Sequence record: KP869105
Length of the DNA: 64,000 nt
Reading direction: 5' to 3' (one strand)
Source of the DNA: Escherichia coli O157 typing phage 7
In this document: positions 21,462 to 63,404 of the stretch, one piece after another
Numbering within the stretch: the first letter of the stretch is position 1
Layout of the letters: each line of letters starts with the position of its first letter
Position numbers and translations under genes: made by a program
Notes under the pieces: generated by a model
Told to the model about the DNA's origin: nothing
What the model saw: the letters and a program-made list of their open reading frames with translations, nothing else
Database searches by the model: none

Positions 21462-22886
21462 TTATGGATAAGTATAGATGATACCAGTTTCTAAAGCAGT
21501 TTTATGGATGATGTATCCATTACGTGATTCTTGAACATCAACTTCTGAATAATCTTTCATCATCTTCTGAAGCGTATAACGATGCAAGTAGTACTTACTA
21601 TCTGGATCTTCAGTTTTCCAATCTTTACCTTCTTCAGTCATTTTTTGGATTTCATCCATAACCCACCAACCGCACCAGATATAAGCTGAAGTACGATGTG
21701 GAAGAGGATGAACATAAGGCAATTCACCTTCTGGTTCCGGAGCAACTTTATCAGTTACCTGAACTTGACCTGTTGTTTTAACTGTTTTACTATCATAGTC
21801 GGTTGCTGTAACGACAGCAGTAACTTCAATAGTTTGACTTCCAATAGATGAGGTGTCAACGGTGTATACGTTAGTTGACCCTTCTACAGGAGAAGAATCT
21901 TTCTTCCATGAATAAGTAATTTGTGCTGCTTCAGGTGCTCCAGTAACATTAGCCGTAAATGTAGCCGAAGCATCTTGCTGAACGTTAATAGAAGGAGGAG
22001 TCAATGTAACCTGTGGATTCATTGTCTTCTTATTAACTGTCAATGATACTTCATTAGAAGTAACTTCCTTTTCATTGTAATTTTCTGCAGTTACTTGCGC
22101 TACACATTTAATTCTTTTTACTCCACTTGTAGTTGGAGTATAGTTAAATGTAGAGTTAGTTTCTCCACCAATTTGAGAATCATCTACATACCACTTATAT
22201 GTAGCAGACGCTCCATCAGGTTGAGAAGCTAAGGCAGCAGTAAATTGAACTGGAGTTCCAATTACTCCAGCTGAAGGACTATTAGGAGTTACAACTAAAG
22301 TAGTCGCTTGGGTTTTCTTGTTAACAGTCAGCGACACTTCGTCAGAAGTAACGGTCTTTGTATCATAATCTGTCGCAGTTACTTGAGCTACACACTTAAT
22401 TTTTTTAACTCCGCTTGTGGCAGGAGTATAGTTAAATGTAGCGTCAGTTGCTTCTCCCACAGGAGAACCGTCGACGTGCCATTGATACGTAGCAGATGCA
22501 CCTGGCGGCTGTGAATCTAAGGCAGCGGTAAATTGAACAGCTGTTCCGATTACTCCTTCCGAAGGACTATCAGGAGTTACTGTTATTGTAGTAGTCTGTG
22601 TCTTATTTTGAACTGTGATAGTTGTCGTAGCTTCTGCTGTTTCAGGTTCAGATTCAGATTCTGGAACTGTATTTGTTGCAACGACTTTAATAGTCTTTTG
22701 ACCGGCAGGTCCTTTTAGTACATAACTAAAAGTTGCTTCAGCTCCATCCTGTGGAACATTATCTACACTCCAAGCATAGGTAATAGTTCCACCTTCAGTT
22801 TGACCACTGGGTGCAGCAGTAAACTGCTTGGTTTCATCAATAACTCCTGTTGGGGTTTTAGGAGTTATATCAACTGTAAAAGTCAT
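21462..22886 (-). CDS. hoc: head outer capsid protein Hoc, four Ig-like domains
   Basis: 474 aa; N-terminus MTFTVDITPKTPTGVIDETKQFTA and capsid-binding C-terminus ...YIWCGWWVMDEIQKMTEEGKDWK as recalled for T4 Hoc; internal duplicated Ig module. Confidence 0.9.
   Translation of the reverse strand: MTFTVDITPKTPTGVIDETKQFTAAPSGQTEGGTITYAWSVDNVPQDGAEATFSYVLKGPAGQKTIKVVATNTVPESESEPETAEATTTITVQNKTQTTTITVTPDSPSEGVIGTAVQFTAALDSQPPGASATYQWHVDGSPVGEATDATFNYTPATSGVKKIKCVAQVTATDYDTKTVTSDEVSLTVNKKTQATTLVVTPNSPSAGVIGTPVQFTAALASQPDGASATYKWYVDDSQIGGETNSTFNYTPTTSGVKRIKCVAQVTAENYNEKEVTSNEVSLTVNKKTMNPQVTLTPPSINVQQDASATFTANVTGAPEAAQITYSWKKDSSPVEGSTNVYTVDTSSIGSQTIEVTAVVTATDYDSKTVKTTGQVQVTDKVAPEPEGELPYVHPLPHRTSAYIWCGWWVMDEIQKMTEEGKDWKTEDPDSKYYLHRYTLQKMMKDYSEVDVQESRNGYIIHKTALETGIIYTYP
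22026..22595 (-). repeat. tandem direct repeat of about 285 bp inside hoc (duplicated Ig-like domain)
   Basis: Protein modules TVTPDSPSEGVIGTAVQFTAAL...KIKCVAQVTATDYD...SLTVNKKT and TPNSPSAGVIGTPVQFTAAL...RIKCVAQVTAENYN...SLTVNKKT are in tandem; DNA units visibly alignable. Confidence 0.7.
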
Positions 22887-33765: not shown

Positions 33766-33769
33766 CAAT

Positions 33770-33795
33770 GGGGACCGAAAGGTCCCCATATTTTT
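33770..33795. terminator. bidirectional hairpin terminator between gene 54 and the minus-strand early block
   Basis: GGGGACC-GAAA-GGTCCCC followed by ATATTTTTATTT. Confidence 0.65.
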
Positions 33796-34084
33796 ATTTA
33801 CGGAATGAAATAAAAGCAGCAACTGAAGCAACAGAGGTTTCTTCAATATAAACCTCAATTTTTACCGGAGCTTCTGACTCAAATTTACCTGTTACTACAC
33901 CTTGGAAAATACTTTCAGTCTGTTCTGGCTTTGAAAAATTTTCAGAAGGAAAAATTCCGAACTTTTTATCTGTTCCAAAAATTTTGATAAATTCATCGTA
34001 AACTGCTTCATTGAAAGCGTTATCAGCGGGAATAACGCCTTCAACGACGAGTTCTTGACCTAAAAAGCGCAAAGAAGATTTCAT
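33794..34084 (-). CDS. hypothetical protein downstream of the alt genes
   Basis: 96 aa; GAGGA Shine-Dalgarno; own early promoter/stem-loop cassette upstream. Confidence 0.55.
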   Translation of the reverse strand: MKSSLRFLGQELVVEGVIPADNAFNEAVYDEFIKIFGTDKKFGIFPSENFSKPEQTESIFQGVVTGKFESEAPVKIEVYIEETSVASVAAFISFRK

Positions 34085-34092
34085 TTTGTGTT

Positions 34093-34145
34093 CCTCATGT
34101 TATGTCAGTAAGACTACTATAACACAACATGAGGGACTTGTAAAC
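34093..34145 (-). promoter_or_regulatory. T4-type early promoter with stem-loop (PeSL-like cassette), copy A
   Basis: Minus strand: GTTTAC, 17 nt, TTATAG-type -10; 9-bp inverted repeat CCTCATGTT/AACATGAGG around the -10; GAGGA Shine-Dalgarno follows. Confidence 0.6.
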
Positions 34146-36202
34146 TACATTTTGAACTTTTTAGACATTCCGTTGATGTTAACCAAAGAAGCTAAGATTT
34201 GAGAAACTTCGTTTTCCTCTTCTTTTGATTCTTCTACAAGGAATTGATTAAATCCAGCCATTGGACGAACTTCACCAGTTTCCATTAGATGGTCGCCATC
34301 ATATACTGATTCTTCTAATTGTTCAGAAGGAGGAACGATTGTACCTTCGATTAGATACTTGTTATAAGCAGTTTCTTTCATAAAGTAAGTACTTACTTTA
34401 TTAATCTTCAGTAAAATTCCACGTGGTAGAATAACTTCAGCTTCTGATGGAAATCCTGACAAATGACCTGGAACGATAACTTTAACTCGTTCAGCTCCTT
34501 TAATTACCATACCCACGCTAGTTTCAGCATCTTCATTAGCATATGTAGAATGACTACCCATATGCATCAAATCTTCTGCATCAACGGAACCTTCTCCTTC
34601 ACCAGAAAATACTGCTCCGGAATTATCTAAGGCCATATAATTTTTACCATACTCACCAAAGATATTTGGTTTAAGTGATGTCGATACGAAGTTCTTGAAA
34701 TAGAACATTTTATTTTCAATGTTATGACGCAAAGTTTTAAAAGTAACTTCTTGTCCACGGTAAAGTGTAGTTCCTGGAGGAAGAACTGAACCTTTAGCGA
34801 ATGCAGAATCCAGCGTCTCAATATGTTTAATAGCTCGTTCCATATATTCTTCACGTGTAGAATCAGGTTTACCTAAAAGGAATGAGTTCATTTCAACATA
34901 CGAATCTGCGCAATAATCTTCAATTACATCAGACTCAGCCTGAGTCAATCCTTTTGGAGTTACTTCAGTGCTTGCATATTCATACGCCTGAGCAGCGGAT
35001 TCATCAATTAATTTATAAATGCCATTCATGACAAATTGAATAATAGCTGTCTTTTCATCTGGCGTAGCTTTAGAACCTTTAACTAAATCATTGACAATTT
35101 TCTTAATAACATCAAAGCTATTAGAAATATTAATGTCAGCAAGATCGCTTAAAATTTTATCAGTTTTATAATCAAAAAATTCTTTATTCTTTAAATATTC
35201 TTGAGAACTTTGATATGTTATATCGCTCTGCAACTTGATAGATGGATCACGTAAACGTGCATGGGCTAATGCAATATGATTTCGGAAGCTTTCTAGTTCA
35301 TAATCGTTAGATTTAAAACGAGAAGCACTTCTCATACCACCGATAGCTCCTTTGCTGAAGTTTGAACCAATCTGAATAACGCCAGAGTTCATTGGTCCTT
35401 CTGCTTTATATACCGGAACTTTAGATTCAAACTCTTGATATTTCTTAGCAGCGAAGCTATCACCCTGAAGTGAAGCATCAACAGTAGAATATTGAGCTTG
35501 TGCTGCTAATCGACGGCTAATTTTAGTTTTCTGAATAACAGCTTGATCCGTACGCTTATCATTTTCTAAAGCAATAGAAGCAGCAACTGCGACAGCTTTA
35601 GGAACAGCATTACCTGTTTTAACGTCTACATAAACATCACCAACCTTTGATTCAACTTTTGTGAATAACTCAGTTGAAATAGGAGGTACACCTGGAATGT
35701 CTTCTAAATTGGCATTTTTACGGTAAACCATAATATATGCATATTTCTTATCATAGTCCCAGATTTCCTTTAAAAGAACATATCGACCTGCTCCTTTAGT
35801 ACGTACTAAACGGTCAGCAATAACTTGCATTTGACGAGCAGCGCCGTTTGTTTTACTTTTTAGTACGCGGAATAGGCATGCATCAATTTTATACTGTTTC
35901 ATTGTTTGAAGAGCAGTATCAAAAACCGCATTAATGACGCCAATTGGATTTCCACCCAAGTTTTTAAGCTTAACTAACGATAATTTCTCGTTGACGCCTA
36001 TCATTACGATATGCATCATTTTGTCGCCTGGCTTAACGTTTTTATTCGTATCACCGCCAGAGGTGTATGTACAAAATCTAAATCCAGGAAGCACGCTTTC
36101 TTCACCGGCTTGAATAGCAAAAATTTGTGGTATTTTATGCTTAGGATTTAAGTTAACAACCGGCGCCGAAGCGCCGTCAAATAATTCTGTAATAAGTTCC
36201 AT
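34145..36202 (-). CDS. Alt-family ADP-ribosyltransferase, paralog A (candidate alt.-1)
   Basis: 685 aa; N-terminus MELITELFDGASAPVVNLNPKHKIPQIFAIQ parallels the upstream paralog; R-S-E ART motifs (LYRGQE, FVSTSL, SEAEVILPRG). Confidence 0.85.
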   Translation of the reverse strand: MELITELFDGASAPVVNLNPKHKIPQIFAIQAGEESVLPGFRFCTYTSGGDTNKNVKPGDKMMHIVMIGVNEKLSLVKLKNLGGNPIGVINAVFDTALQTMKQYKIDACLFRVLKSKTNGAARQMQVIADRLVRTKGAGRYVLLKEIWDYDKKYAYIMVYRKNANLEDIPGVPPISTELFTKVESKVGDVYVDVKTGNAVPKAVAVAASIALENDKRTDQAVIQKTKISRRLAAQAQYSTVDASLQGDSFAAKKYQEFESKVPVYKAEGPMNSGVIQIGSNFSKGAIGGMRSASRFKSNDYELESFRNHIALAHARLRDPSIKLQSDITYQSSQEYLKNKEFFDYKTDKILSDLADINISNSFDVIKKIVNDLVKGSKATPDEKTAIIQFVMNGIYKLIDESAAQAYEYASTEVTPKGLTQAESDVIEDYCADSYVEMNSFLLGKPDSTREEYMERAIKHIETLDSAFAKGSVLPPGTTLYRGQEVTFKTLRHNIENKMFYFKNFVSTSLKPNIFGEYGKNYMALDNSGAVFSGEGEGSVDAEDLMHMGSHSTYANEDAETSVGMVIKGAERVKVIVPGHLSGFPSEAEVILPRGILLKINKVSTYFMKETAYNKYLIEGTIVPPSEQLEESVYDGDHLMETGEVRPMAGFNQFLVEESKEEENEVSQILASLVNINGMSKKFKM

Positions 36203-36205
36203 GAT

Positions 36206-38302
36206 TTATCCTTGAACGAACTTGTAAGGCATGTTTGTAATATCTATGCAAGACGCAATAATTCCAAGAGATGATTCTACTTTCTGTTTAACATTTGATG
36301 AAACAAATGATGCAAAGTCAACTCTGTCTTCTATTTCAATATCACCTGTCATTGCAACCAATTCACCAGTTTCCATTAAATGGTCTCCGTCATAGATTAC
36401 CGATTCGGTGAGCTCTTCCGTGGTCATAACTTCAGCTTGAATGAGTTTTGTATTATTAGATGTTGTTCCGTCATTATTAGAAGCATCAGTTATTTTATTA
36501 ACTTTGACCATCAATCCACGCGGTAGAATAACTTCAGCTTCTGTTGCTATTCCGAGACTTCCTGGATATACAACATTAACTTTATGAGCTCCATCAATTG
36601 CCCATCCTATTTGAACTTTAACGTATTCAGGATTTTCTTTATACGCTCTTATTTCGTTTGGATTAATAGTTATTCCTTCTTCATTTTTATCAACTGTTAA
36701 TTCATTGCGAGCTTCTGGTTCTAAAAGACCAATACCAGCATGTGTGATTCCAAAACGTCCAAAAATGATAGGAGTTAAAGAAGTAGATACAAAATTTCTG
36801 AAGTAGAACACTTTATTTTTAACTAACGCTTCATATATAGGAGCAGTCATACTTTGAGCACGATAAACTGTGATGCCTTCCGGTATGCGGTCACCATTTT
36901 CAAAAGCTGAATCTAAGTTATTTATAGCAGATTCAATTTCTTTTTCACTCATTACATCATATCGTTCTGGATTGTAACGACCTAAAAGAAGATTATTGAT
37001 GTCAGTATATCCTGAACCGCAATATTCTCTAATGCCACGCTTTTGTGATGGAGTATATTTAGAACCATCGCGGGCAATAGTAATATCAATCATTGGACCA
37101 GCACCAATTCCAGAAAAACTGTAAATCATTCGTTTGAGGAATTTAGTTTTTGCTGCGTTCCAGGAATTTTTAGTTATTTCTTCCCAGACTTCATCTGGTT
37201 GTCCTTTACGATTTTTATTATGATTAGCAAGCCATTTATCTTTATAATCTTCAAAGAATTGATTTACAGCTGCTGCGTATTTCTCTAAACATTTTATTGA
37301 AGTAGTTGGTTCATTTTTAATTGCATTAAAAATTACTTCTTTAATTTTTTCTGAAACTTCACCGACTTGACTCATTGGAAAGAATTTATAATCATAGTGA
37401 AGTTCATCTGCCGTTCCTTCAGCAATAATTTTTGCTGCCTTTGTTTTAGAAGCTAATGAATTAATTCCAATTTTCATTTCTTCTGCTTCGGGAATTAAAG
37501 GTGCAGTAGCTGGTTTATTAAAATTAGCTGCTGTAGATTCATACTTCTGGAATAATTCACTTTCAAATCTAGAAGATTCCAATGACTGACTTTGTGCAAT
37601 TGCTCTACGGGAAATTTTAACTTTAACGATTACGGCTTGGTCAGAACGTTTATCATTTTCTTGTGCAATAGATGCAGCAATTGCCTCATTTTTGGTTACT
37701 TGAGCTCCAGTATCTTTATTGATATAAACATCACCGACCTTCGATTCAACTTTAGTAAAGAGCTCGGTGCTAATTTCTGGAACTCCTGGAATGTCTTCTA
37801 GTGATACATTTTTACGATGTATAAGAATATATGCATACTTTTTATCGTAATCCCAGAGTTCCTTAAGAAGGACGTATCTGCCACCTGAACGACTACGGAT
37901 AAGTCTATCAGCAATAACTTGAATTTGTCGAGCTTGGCCAGCAGTTTTAGACTTAAGAATACGAAGCATACAAGCATCAATTTTATATTGACGCATTGTT
38001 TGCATTGCAACAGTAAAAACTGAATTGATATAATTAATTGGGCTTGGACCAAGACCTTTTAATTTAGCAATTGAACCTTTAGCAGTTAATGTAAAAGGAA
38101 CAATGTGCATCATTTTGTCGCCCATTTTTAAATCGCGATTAGTATCACCTCCAGATGTATATGTACATAAACGAAAGCCTGGTTGTTCAATTGCATCATC
38201 AACATGAACTGAAAAAATTTGTGGTATTTTCTTCTTTGGATTTAAGTTTGTAATCGGAAGAGTAGTATCTTCGTCAAATAATTCTGTAATAAGTTCCATC
38301 AT
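36206..38302 (-). CDS. alt: Alt ADP-ribosyltransferase (packaged, modifies host RNA polymerase in T4)
   Basis: 698 aa from first ATG (second ATG at 38299); N-terminus MELITELFDEDTTLPITNL as recalled for T4 Alt; R-S-E motifs (VYRAQS, FVSTSL, TEAEVILPRG); late promoter box upstream. Confidence 0.9.
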   Translation of the reverse strand: MMELITELFDEDTTLPITNLNPKKKIPQIFSVHVDDAIEQPGFRLCTYTSGGDTNRDLKMGDKMMHIVPFTLTAKGSIAKLKGLGPSPINYINSVFTVAMQTMRQYKIDACMLRILKSKTAGQARQIQVIADRLIRSRSGGRYVLLKELWDYDKKYAYILIHRKNVSLEDIPGVPEISTELFTKVESKVGDVYINKDTGAQVTKNEAIAASIAQENDKRSDQAVIVKVKISRRAIAQSQSLESSRFESELFQKYESTAANFNKPATAPLIPEAEEMKIGINSLASKTKAAKIIAEGTADELHYDYKFFPMSQVGEVSEKIKEVIFNAIKNEPTTSIKCLEKYAAAVNQFFEDYKDKWLANHNKNRKGQPDEVWEEITKNSWNAAKTKFLKRMIYSFSGIGAGPMIDITIARDGSKYTPSQKRGIREYCGSGYTDINNLLLGRYNPERYDVMSEKEIESAINNLDSAFENGDRIPEGITVYRAQSMTAPIYEALVKNKVFYFRNFVSTSLTPIIFGRFGITHAGIGLLEPEARNELTVDKNEEGITINPNEIRAYKENPEYVKVQIGWAIDGAHKVNVVYPGSLGIATEAEVILPRGLMVKVNKITDASNNDGTTSNNTKLIQAEVMTTEELTESVIYDGDHLMETGELVAMTGDIEIEDRVDFASFVSSNVKQKVESSLGIIASCIDITNMPYKFVQG

Positions 38303-42711: not shown

Positions 42712-43044
42712 TTATTTTACTACTTTCCAGTGCTTCATGTCAAGTTTACCAACTTTTTTCATCTTCTCAATCAAACGTTCGGCACGTTGGCGAGCTGTAA
42801 CATAATACCATTCGCCTAATTCATTTTGTTCAATTTTTCCAACGATTACTGTATTCAATTCATAAATCCAACCAGTAAAGAAATTATGAACTTGAATTGT
42901 AAAGGTGAAATCTGTTCCCATACCTTCTGTTGTTTCTACTTCAATAATATCACCTTCAACTGCCATTAAGAACCACATAGTTTCATCATATTTACCATTG
43001 AAGCATTTAGTTTTAACTGCAGCGTTCAGATTAATCGTTTTCAT
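42712..43044 (-). CDS. hypothetical protein
   Basis: 110 aa; early promoter/stem-loop upstream; Shine-Dalgarno AAGGAG. Confidence 0.55.
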   Translation of the reverse strand: MKTINLNAAVKTKCFNGKYDETMWFLMAVEGDIIEVETTEGMGTDFTFTIQVHNFFTGWIYELNTVIVGKIEQNELGEWYYVTARQRAERLIEKMKKVGKLDMKHWKVVK

Positions 43045-43070
43045 TTTATTCTCCTTTGTTTGTGTAAGAT

Positions 43071-43110
43071 AATACTATCACAAAGGAACCATACTGTAAA
43101 CAACTTTGTG
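43071..43110 (-). promoter_or_regulatory. T4-type early promoter with stem-loop
   Basis: Minus strand: GTTTAC, 17 nt, ATAGTATTAT; inverted repeat CACAAAG/CTTTGTG. Confidence 0.5.
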
Positions 43111-48564: not shown

Positions 48565-48914
48565 TTAGAAAGGTCCTGGATGTCTTCTGCGAACTTGTTG
48601 AAGGAGTTGTTGATTTGTTTTTCAACCAATCCTGGCTTACGAGCCACCACATCCGCCTTCTTTGCATCTTTGCGCAGTTTTTCATTTTCACGCTCAATAG
48701 CAGCAATCGCCTCACGATTTTTATTATTCATCGCATCAATATAATTATACTGAATTCGCAAATTATTTAATGCTAAGGCGTTTTCATTGGCCGTTTTTGT
48801 AATTTCTACAACAGACGTTTCTAATCTTTCTACCTTATTTTTTAAAATAATAGATGTTCCGCCAAATGCTATTACAAGTAATAGCAATCCAGCTGTAAAA
48901 TTACTTACATGCAT
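48561..48914 (-). CDS. i-spanin (inner-membrane lysis protein; T4 pseT.3 equivalent)
   Basis: 117 aa; N-terminal transmembrane helix FTAGLLLLVIAFGGTSIIL followed by charged helical region. Confidence 0.7.
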   Translation of the reverse strand: MHVSNFTAGLLLLVIAFGGTSIILKNKVERLETSVVEITKTANENALALNNLRIQYNYIDAMNNKNREAIAAIERENEKLRKDAKKADVVARKPGLVEKQINNSFNKFAEDIQDLSK

Positions 48915-49411
48915 AAAGTTTTAATAACCTCTATAATATCGTCTTGAGAAAGACCGTTAATTAAAATATGATGTTCAGCCGGAGATTTAGAAATTTTAAA
49001 GCACGCCGCAACATCTTCTGCCATATCCGATGCGCTACGATTTGGATTACTAATTCCAAGACGATGCTTTCCTGTCAAAGGATTAACGATGATATAGCAT
49101 TTGCAGCTATTGATATGAACATTAGGTTGAGTCTGATTAATAAACACTTCACAATCATACTTAGCGAGTTGATTTTCTAAAAAGACTTTCATCTCCTCAA
49201 CCGCATCAGGAAGCATATCACGGGCTTGCTCAAGACGACGATTTCGATATTCTTTAATGGTCGTTTTCCGCTTGACTTGCTTAGCTAAATCTTTCTTAAG
49301 ATCGGTGATATATCCAACTCGACGATTTCCTTTGAATACAGAAATCCCATCTGTAGTATCACCGTATGCTTCAACGACCATTTCAGTAGTAATAAGCTGC
49401 AAATCCATCAT
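48905..49411 (-). CDS. alc: Alc (unfolds host nucleoid, blocks host transcription)
   Basis: 168 aa from first ATG (167 from second, matching recalled T4 Alc length); position between spanins and rnlA. Confidence 0.75.
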   Translation of the reverse strand: MMDLQLITTEMVVEAYGDTTDGISVFKGNRRVGYITDLKKDLAKQVKRKTTIKEYRNRRLEQARDMLPDAVEEMKVFLENQLAKYDCEVFINQTQPNVHINSCKCYIIVNPLTGKHRLGISNPNRSASDMAEDVAACFKISKSPAEHHILINGLSQDDIIEVIKTLCM

Positions 49412-49416
49412 AAAGT

Positions 49417-49469
49417 CCTCATGTTATGTCAGTAAGATTACTATAACACAACACGAGGGACTTGTAAAC
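49417..49469 (-). promoter_or_regulatory. T4-type early promoter with stem-loop (PeSL-like cassette), copy B, upstream of alc
   Basis: 51 of 53 nt identical to copy A, including GTTTAC, -10 and leader. Confidence 0.6.
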
Positions 49470-49472
49470 AGC

Positions 49473-51060
<1,588 letters not shown>

Positions 51061-58053: not shown

Positions 58054-58088
58054 GGGTAATAGTATCACACTACTACCCTGTTGTAAAC
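58054..58088 (-). promoter_or_regulatory. T4-type early promoter with stem-loop
   Basis: Minus strand: GTTTAC, 17 nt, ATACTA; imperfect inverted repeat GGGTAGTAG/CTATTACCC. Confidence 0.45.
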
Positions 58089-62437: not shown

Positions 62438-62851
62438 ATGGCCGAGATTAAAAGAAAGTTCAGAGCAGAAGACGGTCTGGACGCAGGTGGTGATAAAATA
62501 ATCAACGTAGCTTTAGCTGATCGTACCGTAGGAACTGACGGTGTAAACGTTGATTACTTAATTCAAGAAAACACAGTTCAACAATATGATCCAACTCGTG
62601 GATATTTAAAAGATTTTGTAATCATTTATGATAACCGCTTTTGGGCTGCTATAAATGATATTCCAAAACCAGCAGGAGCTTTTAATAGCGTACGATGGAG
62701 AGCGTTACACACTGATGCAAACTGGACAACTGTTTCGTCAGGACCCTATCAATTAAAATCAGGCGAATCGATTTCAGTTAACACCGCAGCGGGTAATGAC
62801 ATTACATTTACTTTGCCATCTTCTCCAATTGATGGTGATACTATCGTTCTC
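62438..62851 (+). CDS. 34: long tail fiber proximal subunit gp34, N-terminal part (sequence then breaks into gapped fragments)
   Basis: MAEIKRKFRAEDGLDAGGDKIINVALADRTVGTDGVNVDYLIQ... N-terminus; late promoter box 62396-62403; continues in 63168-63404 after collapsing duplicates. Confidence 0.8.
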
Positions 62852-62861
62852 NNNNNNNNNN
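62852..62861. other. assembly gap (10 N)
   Basis: Run of n in the sequence. Confidence 0.95.
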
Positions 62862-63004
62862 GCACTGATGCAAACTGGACAACTGTTTCGTCAGGACCCT
62901 ATCAATTAAAATCAGGCGAATCGATTTCAGTTAACACCGCAGCGGGTAATGACATTACATTTACTTTGCCATCTTCTCCAATTGATGGTGATACTATCGT
63001 TCTC
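62862..63004 (+). other. redundant copy of gene 34 sequence 62709-62851 (unmerged overlapping fragment)
   Basis: Identical to the preceding about 143 nt except the first base; bounded by N runs. Confidence 0.85.
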
Positions 63005-63014
63005 NNNNNNNNNN
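63005..63014. other. assembly gap (10 N)
   Basis: Run of n. Confidence 0.95.
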
Positions 63015-63157
63015 ACGAATCGATTTCAGTTAACACCGCAGCGGGTAATGACATTACATTTACTTTGCCATCTTCTCCAATTGATGGTGATACTATCGTT
63101 CTCCAAGATATTGGAGGAAAACCTGGAGTTAACCAGGTTTTAATTACAGCTCCGGTA
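63015..63157 (+). other. overlapping gene 34 fragment (repeats 62764-62851, then extends 55 nt)
   Basis: Sequence identity with the earlier fragment, then new in-frame gp34 sequence QDIGGKPGVNQVLITAPV. Confidence 0.85.
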
Positions 63158-63167
63158 NNNNNNNNNN
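63158..63167. other. assembly gap (10 N)
   Basis: Run of n. Confidence 0.95.
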
Positions 63168-63404
63168 CAAGATATTGGAGGAAAACCTGGAGTTAACCAG
63201 GTTTTAATTACAGCTCCGGTACAAAGCATTGTAAACTTTAGAGGTCAACAAGTACGCTCAGTACTAATGACTCATCCAAAATCACAGATAGTTTTAATTT
63301 TTAGTAATCGTCTGTGGCAAATGTATGTTGCTGATTATAGCAGAGAAGCGGCAGTTGTAACACCGGCAAGTCTTTATCAAGCGCAATCAAACGATTTTAT
63401 CGTG
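63168..63404 (+). CDS. 34: gp34 internal fragment (overlaps previous fragment by about 52 nt, then extends)
   Basis: Continues the gp34 reading frame: ...QSIVNFRGQQVRSVLMTHPKSQIVLIFSNRLWQMYVADYSREAAVVTPASLYQAQSNDFIV. Confidence 0.7.

Follow-up and report, generated by a model that had tools for sequence, protein, structure and literature searches.

Why should a phage genome carry two almost identical promoter regions some 15 kb apart, in front of two non-homologous genes? The question is raised by a 64,000-nt stretch of Escherichia coli O157 typing phage 7 (KP869105; hereafter the window), in which positions 34093–34145 and 49417–49469 had been read from the sequence alone as copies of one early promoter/stem-loop cassette that differ at 2 of 53 positions. 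We reproduce this count on the minus strand, and a repeat finder adds one base, giving a 54-nt repeat at 34092–34145 (site A) and 49416–49469 (site B). The window regions around both sites are 100% identical (megablast) to Escherichia phage wV7 (HM997020/NC_019505), a member of Tequatrovirus; the window coordinate plus 85,054 gives the coordinate in the wV7 record. Site A reads GTTTACAAGTCCCTCATGTTGTGTTATAGTAGTCTTACTGACATAACATGAGGA on the minus strand, and site B is the same except for A16G and G32A. The two sites are direct repeats, 15,324 nt apart, and all genes at both of them lie on the minus strand.

At each site, the cassette makes up the whole intergenic gap. Site A is bounded by the stop codon of an Alt-like ADP-ribosyltransferase paralog on one side and by alt.-3 (33794–34084, minus strand; 96 amino acids, Pfam DUF5498) on the other, and site B lies between the rnlA stop codon (TAA, 49473–49475) and alc (48905–49408, minus strand; 167 amino acids, Pfam ALC), so that the downstream genes had been named correctly as a 96-aa ORF and alc. 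Pairwise alignment gives sharp limits to the identity, from GTTTAC to GAGGA: Upstream, the flanks are coding DNA with no relation to each other, and the 8-nt spacers between Shine-Dalgarno (SD) sequence and AUG are unlike (AACACAAA at site A, ACTTTATG at site B). The next-best match to the 54-mer in the window has 24 mismatches, and we found no further repeat of this kind in the window beyond this pair. Against seven further promoter-like sites of the GTTTAC type in the window, the cassette shows differences at 25–38 of the 54 positions, and the A/B identity therefore goes far past the promoter consensus, running through the 5′ UTR to the SD as the sequence-only reading had held. With no match to the 53-nt repeat expected from 100 dinucleotide shuffles, these differences also rule out a chance or consensus-only similarity.

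The promoter itself, which had been called T4-type and early, is borne out by a promoter scan: Both sites have TTTACA, a 17-nt spacer, and TATAGT with an upstream TG (10 of 12 consensus matches). The −35 hexamers lie at 34139–34144 (site A, where the T4 form GTTTAC occupies 34140–34145) and 49463–49468 (site B), and the extended −10 elements (TGTTATAGT; TGn plus TATAGT) at 34116–34124 and 49440–49448, all on the minus strand. The fifth base of the −10 is G, not A, in most genomes; some have TATAAT. From sigma-70 geometry, the predicted transcription start at site A is an A 7 nt after the −10 (34109, minus strand), and that at site B is 49433 (minus strand). The upstream stop codons are very close: The G of the TAG at site A is the G of GTTTAC, and the TAA at site B sits 3 nt upstream of GTTTAC. 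At the other end, both sites have GAGG followed by 8 nt and ATG. The A-rich upstream regions are not common to the two sites; at about −44 to −41, site A has AAAA and site B has ACTAAGCT with a more distal A-tract, in both cases inside coding DNA. The cassette thus resembles generic T4 early promoters (UP/GTTTAC/TGn/−10) in its −35, 17-nt spacing, TGn, and −10, but the shared spacer, loop, and 5′ UTR belong to no promoter consensus.

In the sense RNA, the cassette is predicted to form a 14-bp stem (cassette positions 12–25 with 40–53), a 2-nt bulge, a 4-bp inner stem, and a GUCU loop, with three G-U pairs. The 9-bp inverted repeat described earlier (CCTCATGTT/AACATGAGG) is real, with its length understated; at site B it amounts to 8 of 9 positions at the DNA level because one position is G-T (G-U in RNA). 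The arrangement of hairpin and promoter is particular: The promoter spacer is the 5′ arm, the SD is the end of the 3′ arm, and the −10 (positions 25–30) and the predicted start (position 37, 3′ of the 5′ arm) are near the apex. On the minus strand at site A, the 5′ arm (CCCUCAUGUUGUGU-U) occupies 34121–34134 within the spacer, the extended −10 falls at the internal bulge and inner stem, and the 3′ arm (GACAUAACAUGAGG) occupies 34093–34106, ending in the SD (GAGG, 34093–34096). The hairpin has 18 bp at site A and ∼22 bp at alc, where the stem adds six pairs of AAGUCC (positions 7–12) with GGACUU. The ACUU of this outer stem is not part of the shared 54 nt, and alt.-3 has nothing equivalent to it. 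Site B accordingly has longer arms (minus strand), the 5′ arm at 49445–49463 (core 49445–49458) and the 3′ arm at 49413–49430, the latter including the SD (GAGG, 49417–49420) and the site-B-specific ACUU. No Rfam family matches the cassette.

Folding of read-through RNA, as it would arrive from upstream genes, gives −23.7 kcal/mol at site A (z = −3.7) and −31.4 kcal/mol at site B (z = −4.4), and none of 200 shuffles folds as well at either site. RNAs that start after the −10 have no significant structure (z = −0.1 and −1.0). In partition-function calculations, the probability that the SD is unpaired is 0.001–0.008 on read-through RNA and 0.21–0.71 on RNA from the cassette's own promoter; opening the region from SD to AUG is predicted to cost ∼13 kcal/mol on the former versus 2.8–4.5 on the latter. 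The antisense fold (−12.5 to −16.9 kcal/mol) is 5–10 kcal/mol weaker than the sense hairpin (−22 kcal/mol) because of the G-U pairs. A terminator scan of both cassettes finds no terminator-like T-run after either hairpin (the sequences that follow are AACACAAAAUG and ACUUUAUGAUG), and transcriptional read-through is therefore expected. We thus reject an intrinsic (rho-independent) terminator, that is, a G+C-rich hairpin with a U-run, which has no match at either cassette.

These predictions point to a gate on translation that depends on where a transcript begins. The cassette would act as a strong sigma-70 early promoter of the T4 type (−35 GTTTACA, 17-nt spacer, TGn, −10 TATAGT). Transcripts arriving from upstream (from rnlA into alc, and from the Alt-like gene into alt.-3) would hold both arms, fold, and bury the SD. 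The 5′ arm sits in the promoter spacer and so should be absent from transcripts started at that promoter; these would begin inside the hairpin, with the SD free. Efficient synthesis of Alc and Alt.-3 would in this way depend on each gene's own early promoter being active, in the first minutes of infection. We regard efficient translation of only those transcripts that begin at the embedded early promoter as the most likely function of the cassette, judging from the modeled RNA structures. The explanation as a whole, in which alc had such a gate from the start and alt.-3 received a copy of it, seems to us the best available (probability roughly 0.6).

Hairpins of a related kind are known in T4. 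For the T4 genes e, soc, 49, and I-TevI, the SD is described as buried in a helix on long transcripts, and a promoter in or beside the DNA of the 5′ strand gives translatable transcripts without that strand (PMC3014915). The alc and alt.-3 cassettes are like these hairpins in the predicted burial of the SD on read-through RNA, in a probable start site past the 5′ arm (a layout found in seven other genera), and in the conservation of the arrangement among relatives, here eight genera with covarying arms. They differ in that the embedded promoter is a sigma-70 early promoter and not a late gp55 promoter (TATAAATA); with an early in place of a late promoter, the gate would restrict translation to the early period. 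The hairpin examples given in the part of PMC3014915 that treats these T4 genes do not include alc or alt.-3, and in the literature searched, the T4 genome review (PMC150520) and the 2014 PeSL supplements aside, we found no description of an alc-promoter hairpin.

To ask whether the design is older than the pair, one can look at alc in other genera, for which we took the rnlA–alc intergenic regions via tblastn matches to Alc. The same layout is present in eight genera (Tequatro-, Gelderland-, Jiaoda-, Dhaka-, Kanagawa-, Karam-, Braga-, and Winklervirus): GTTTACA, directly followed by the 5′ arm, a loop with the −10 and start region, a 3′ arm with the SD, and the ATG. The arm sequences vary by genus while complementarity is kept (TCTCCGTTTAGTT/AACTAAACGGAGA, TCCTCATCAG/CTGATGAGGA, AACCTCTCATTTTTA/TGAAAATGAGAGGTT, and TCCTCATTTCGTT/AACGAAATGAGGA). 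Fold z-scores at alc range from −3.2 to −5.7 in the seven non-Tequatrovirus genera, and that of wV7 alc is −4.4. A MAFFT alignment of the eight leaders places the 3′ arms out of register, and a covariance-model alignment misplaced some rows (e.g., Karamvirus); we therefore used an arm-swap test of duplex energies in place of per-column pair counts across genera. Duplexes of a genus's own arms have a mean energy of −19.9 kcal/mol versus −10.7 for arms swapped between genera, and of all 40,320 permutations, none has a total energy as low as that of the true assignment of arms. The alc arms of the eight genera are thus a case of compensatory evolution.

Not all genera follow this layout. In Mosigvirus, alc has another spacer without a 5′ arm and forms no hairpin (z = +0.68), and the hairpin design is therefore dispensable in at least one genus; its 3′ region is still complementary to the Tequatrovirus 5′ arm. 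In Gaprivervirus, rnlA and alc are separated by an additional ORF. What follows the stem varies from one of the eight genera to another, with no consistent U-tract when judged by eye.

Within Tequatrovirus, the pair is fixed. With a 66-nt query, blastn matches 1074 places in 576 phage records; query coverage is 80% or more in 499 of them. Each Tequatrovirus record listed, that of T4 among them (AF158101, in which the copies differ at one of 53 positions), has two such places, and the genes alc and alt.-3 themselves occur in essentially all records of the genus. Since T4 and ∼500 genomes hold the same pair, an assembly artifact, a possibility that the earlier reading had named, is ruled out. 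About 77 records of other genera (Mosigvirus and others) give one partial match each. In JS09 the matching stretch is found upstream of ndd.1 and runs from the −10 through the AUG, including AACACAAAATG, which is otherwise specific to site A.

For variation within the genus, we assembled 37 cassettes: both sites of 16 genomes, plus three single A sites and two single B sites from further contigs. Pattern scans of IMG/VR and metagenome contigs gave 8 and 11 stretches (a few of them unrelated promoters), which are of use for variants and too few for population-level tests; searches for related loci with Alc and Alt.-3 gave five loci each. There are 19 distinct sequences among the 37 cassettes, in which 97.4% of stem cells are paired. 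We find one double compensatory change (C15-G50 to U-A, at site A of SHFML-26) and six pairs that change solely via wobble-preserving transitions. Five pairs are broken, all at site A (e.g., in REP4, ECP52, and ZN18); one such change, G29A, breaks an inner pair and turns the −10 into TATAAT. All four stem substitutions at the alc site keep pairing. The pair-breaking changes at site A make the constraint at alt.-3 look weaker. Covariation within the genus alone does not reach significance (the observed score is equaled or exceeded in 104 of 500 shuffles), since there is so little variation.

How, then, did alt.-3 come by its copy? The alt.-3 homologs of Mosig-, Marfa-, Kagamiyama-, Gapriver-, and Kanagawavirus have GTTTACAA promoters upstream with a short hairpin inside the spacer (e.g., CACCACAAGGATGTGG) and no pairing between spacer and SD. 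Because the design is lacking at alt.-3 outside Tequatrovirus, alt.-3 probably received a copy of the alc cassette in the stem lineage of that genus. A covariance model of the Tequatrovirus cassette scores the alc regions of other genera at 14–26 bits and their alt.-3 regions at 6.5–9.7 bits, and AAGU of the cassette (positions 7–10) finds its complement ACUU only downstream from the alc copy; from these two results we infer that the hairpin-promoter design is ancestral at alc and derived at alt.-3. GTTTACAA is found at the 5′ end of both promoter types and (C)ATGAGGA(A) at their SD end, and the limits of A/B identity fall at GTTTACAA and CATGAGGA, motifs common to both types. The copying may have proceeded by recombination at these short motifs, GTTTACAA on the 5′ side and CATGAGGA at the SD, which would explain why the identity begins at the −35 and stops at the SD.

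The cassette had been likened to the PeSL elements of T4-type phages, and the likeness is partly right. PeSLs (for promoter-early stem-loop) are cassettes found in T4-type phages, as set out in two published accounts (Arbiol et al. 2010, PMC2839356; Comeau et al. 2014, PMC4122927). They are ordered as upstream stop codon, sigma-70 early promoter, stem-loop, SD, and ATG, and their stem-loops fall into five positional subclasses, one of which overlaps the −10, with G-T pairs occurring (PMC2839356). The promoter consensus in PST/T4 is TTTACW-N17-TAYWAT (PMC4122927). PeSLs are reported in many copies per genome, in hyperplastic clusters with variable ORFans adjoining (PMC2839356; PMC4122927), and are proposed to recombine at shared motifs, giving indels, replacements, and mini-circles with breakpoints inside the cassette (PMC2839356). 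The present cassettes match this description in their upstream stop, sigma-70 early promoter, and SD and ATG at the 3′ end; in a promoter (TTTACA-17-TATAGT) close to the consensus; in a stem-loop that overlaps the −10 and has G-T pairs; in conservation that extends past the promoter core; and in signs that the cassette took the place of another promoter at a non-homologous gene, alt.-3. Unlike PeSLs, they occur as two near-identical copies per genome, 13–16 kb apart, and not in many clustered copies; they adjoin genus-conserved genes and not ORFan-rich hyperplastic clusters; and we find no indel or mini-circle evidence for the A/B pair. Their stems are A/U- and G-U-rich, in contrast to the polyG/polyC stems of PeSLs, and they carry no terminator signature, the 3′ arm being the SD, which makes gating a likelier role than termination. 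What stands of the PeSL identification is therefore the architecture and the probable replacement at alt.-3, and what does not is the copy number, the genomic context, and a terminator-like module. Taken together, the cassette is a well-supported case of an already published class of mechanism (the SD-hiding hairpins of T4) joined to an already published class of cassette (PeSL), with an origin-dependent translation gate as its most likely function given the modeled folds.

The copies had also been proposed to be mobile or recombining, and to be a potential site of deletion between the alt and alc regions. As to mobility, the alt.-3 copy probably replaced a different promoter, but we see no present-day recombination between A and B: The A–B distance within genomes (2.5) is not smaller than that between genomes (2.68; permutation P = 0.24). 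The A–B interval is 13.2–15.9 kb and is kept in all 10 genomes with both sites on one stretch, and no deletion between the repeats was seen in the 10 genomes measured. Small ORF indels and the truncated alt.-1/alt.-2 of T4-type genomes account for the size differences. The interval holds the DNA ligase gene 30 and gene 31, both essential in T4, so an A–B deletion should not be viable. It might still be supposed that ongoing ectopic gene conversion, and not an old single copying followed by purifying selection, keeps the copies nearly identical. The two sites have the same consensus sequence (54 of 54), polymorphic positions 15, 16, 27, 32, and 34 have the same alleles at both sites, three whole haplotypes are seen at A in some genomes and at B in others, and T4 recombination works with homologies of ∼50 bp. 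But the shared polymorphic positions are those that the structure tolerates (loop, bulge, or wobble), so recurrent mutation can explain them, and the A–B distance is near that predicted by orthologous divergence, lying between A–A (3.46) and B–B (1.48). Flanking coding DNA has much the same nucleotide diversity as the cassettes (0.064 at A, 0.028 at B). We thus think it rather unlikely that ongoing conversion maintains the identity; occasional conversion between the sites may occur, and one copying event shortly before the radiation of the genus, followed by structurally constrained independent drift, is enough to explain the data.

The function of the hairpin can be read in other ways as well. 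As PeSLs were first interpreted, the stem-loop would be a terminator or attenuator that insulates the early gene, and the cassette mainly a recombination substrate for shuffling. The architecture agrees with the published description, a PeSL stem-loop lowered downstream lacZ expression like a strong terminator in the reported experiments (PMC2839356; PMC4122927), the replacement at alt.-3 implies recombination, and inverted repeats surround the −10 of several other early promoters in the window. We nonetheless judge this unlikely: The trait conserved at these leaders is that the 3′ arm is the SD, which with the absence of a T-run points to translational gating and not to a terminator-like module, and the stem composition, the variable post-stem sequences, the two copies per genome, and the genus-conserved neighbors all run against it. 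Another thought is translational coupling, in which the hairpin blocks free ribosome entry and ribosomes ending at the upstream stop melt the base of the stem, so that Alc and Alt.-3 are made in proportion to translation of the upstream gene and are not silenced. The stop codon lies 0–4 nt before GTTTAC in nine out of nine cases (wV7 A and B and seven other genera), the 5′ arm lies ∼7–14 nt past it, and sequestration of the SD is predicted for read-through RNA. However, the proximity may merely reflect genome compaction, with the gap being the promoter alone; no more than the first few nucleotides of an 18- to 22-bp stem would be within reach of a terminating ribosome; and the apex position of the −10 and start is explained by gating through promoter origin instead. 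Coupling as the main mode is accordingly improbable, though terminating ribosomes could open the stem base and permit some coupled translation, and silencing of read-through RNA may then be incomplete. A DNA-level element, either a cruciform or a site for a protein that co-regulates both promoters, would fit an inverted repeat that brackets the −10 and the fact that both genes adjoin genes for RNA-polymerase-modifying functions (Alt and Alc). It is very hard to reconcile with the rest: The three G-U pairs are specific to the sense RNA and leave the antisense or DNA form mismatched, most stem substitutions keep RNA wobble pairing, and the arms change freely across genera while remaining complementary, as expected of a structure and not of a sequence-specific site.

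If the gate operates as proposed, Alc synthesis would be limited to own-promoter transcripts in the first minutes of infection, and the cassette moved onto alt.-3 would impose the same timing there. Alc ends transcription on cytosine-containing DNA, and its dose and timing therefore plausibly matter; a gate would explain a brief early burst from a gene inside a long transcription unit with multiple promoters. The known T4 gates serve late-only genes, and alc and alt.-3 would be early-only cases, such that T4-type phages would use one RNA trick in both temporal directions. The A/B pair offers a clean case, found in nature, of a regulatory cassette that passed from one gene to a non-homologous one, and its breakpoints at the −35 and SD motifs support the idea of PeSL shuffling in the T4 genus itself. 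At 54 nt, the cassette is a compact, portable unit of promoter, leader, and insulator that could serve phage engineering.

The broader proposition, that hairpin-embedded early promoters are conserved origin-dependent translation gates in at least eight Straboviridae genera and portable by recombination (as at alt.-3), has in our view about an even chance of being right. Elsewhere in the window, the gene 31 promoter (43101 to 43044, minus strand) has a spacer that likewise pairs with its own SD; together with the inverted repeats around the −10 of several other early promoters in the window, this makes the design a recurrent one.

Two Mosigvirus leaders share features with the 54-nt cassette, which in Tequatrovirus wV7 combines an early promoter with a predicted RNA hairpin upstream of alc and of alt.-3. 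The ndd.1 leader of JS09 (positions 1483-1546 of the fetched stretch, L015, local coordinates) resembles the 3' half of the alt.-3 cassette: the match runs from TATAGTAGTC to the ATG and includes the alt.-3-specific AACACAAAATG, while the spacer forms a hairpin (GTAGGA/TCCTAC) unlike that of the alt.-3 copy. About 77 non-Tequatrovirus records each contain a single partial copy of this kind. The second leader lies upstream of alc in PhAPEC2 (positions 441-503 of its own stretch, L038). Its 3' region has retained complementarity to the 5' arm of Tequatrovirus (-20.6 kcal/mol), but its spacer, CACCAAGGAAGGTG, is similar to the alt.-3 promoters of other genera. This combination suggests that promoter halves have been swapped in Mosigvirus alc, in the direction opposite to the probable alc-to-alt.-3 copying.

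Within the window, the layout of the cassette recurs on the minus strand in an early promoter at 43044-43101, ahead of a 110-aa ORF that, by position, is gene 31. The spacer arm TTCCTTTGT, 3' of GTTTACAGTATGG, is complementary to ACAAAGGAG, which contains the Shine-Dalgarno sequence, and the loop holds the -10. Three further minus-strand GTTTAC-type promoter-like sites, at 58088, 46166, and 42709, also have the -10 bracketed by inverted repeats (arm pairs GGGTAGTA/TATTACCC, GGTAGAG/CTCTACC, and GGTACAGG/CCTGTACC, respectively). In these three the 3' arm ends close to the start site, not at the Shine-Dalgarno sequence as in the alc and alt.-3 cassettes; they resemble the class of PeSL-type promoters whose stem-loop overlaps the -10.

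On the minus strand of wV7 (~34146-38300), two Alt-like ADP-ribosyltransferase genes, both full-length, follow one another in tandem, with repeat families spaced ~2094 nt apart, whereas the second Alt-like copy of T4 is present only as the fragments alt.-1 and alt.-2. Cassette spacing differs by 2 kb between the two phages, mostly owing to this reduction in T4. Between the convergent alt.-3 and gene 54, a 9-bp G+C-rich hairpin (33768-33789) is called as a terminator on each strand, the clearer T-run (ATTTTTATTT) following the plus-strand copy; the alt.-3 transcription unit ends at this predicted terminator.

Other tandem repeats occur elsewhere. A 288-nt repeat of 75% identity (22024-22599) suggests, by genome position, the repeated domains of hoc. 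Gene 34, encoding the proximal tail-fibre subunit, has plus-strand repeats at 62710-63221: two perfectly identical 152-nt copies with a third at 68%, and a second set of two perfectly identical 54-nt copies.
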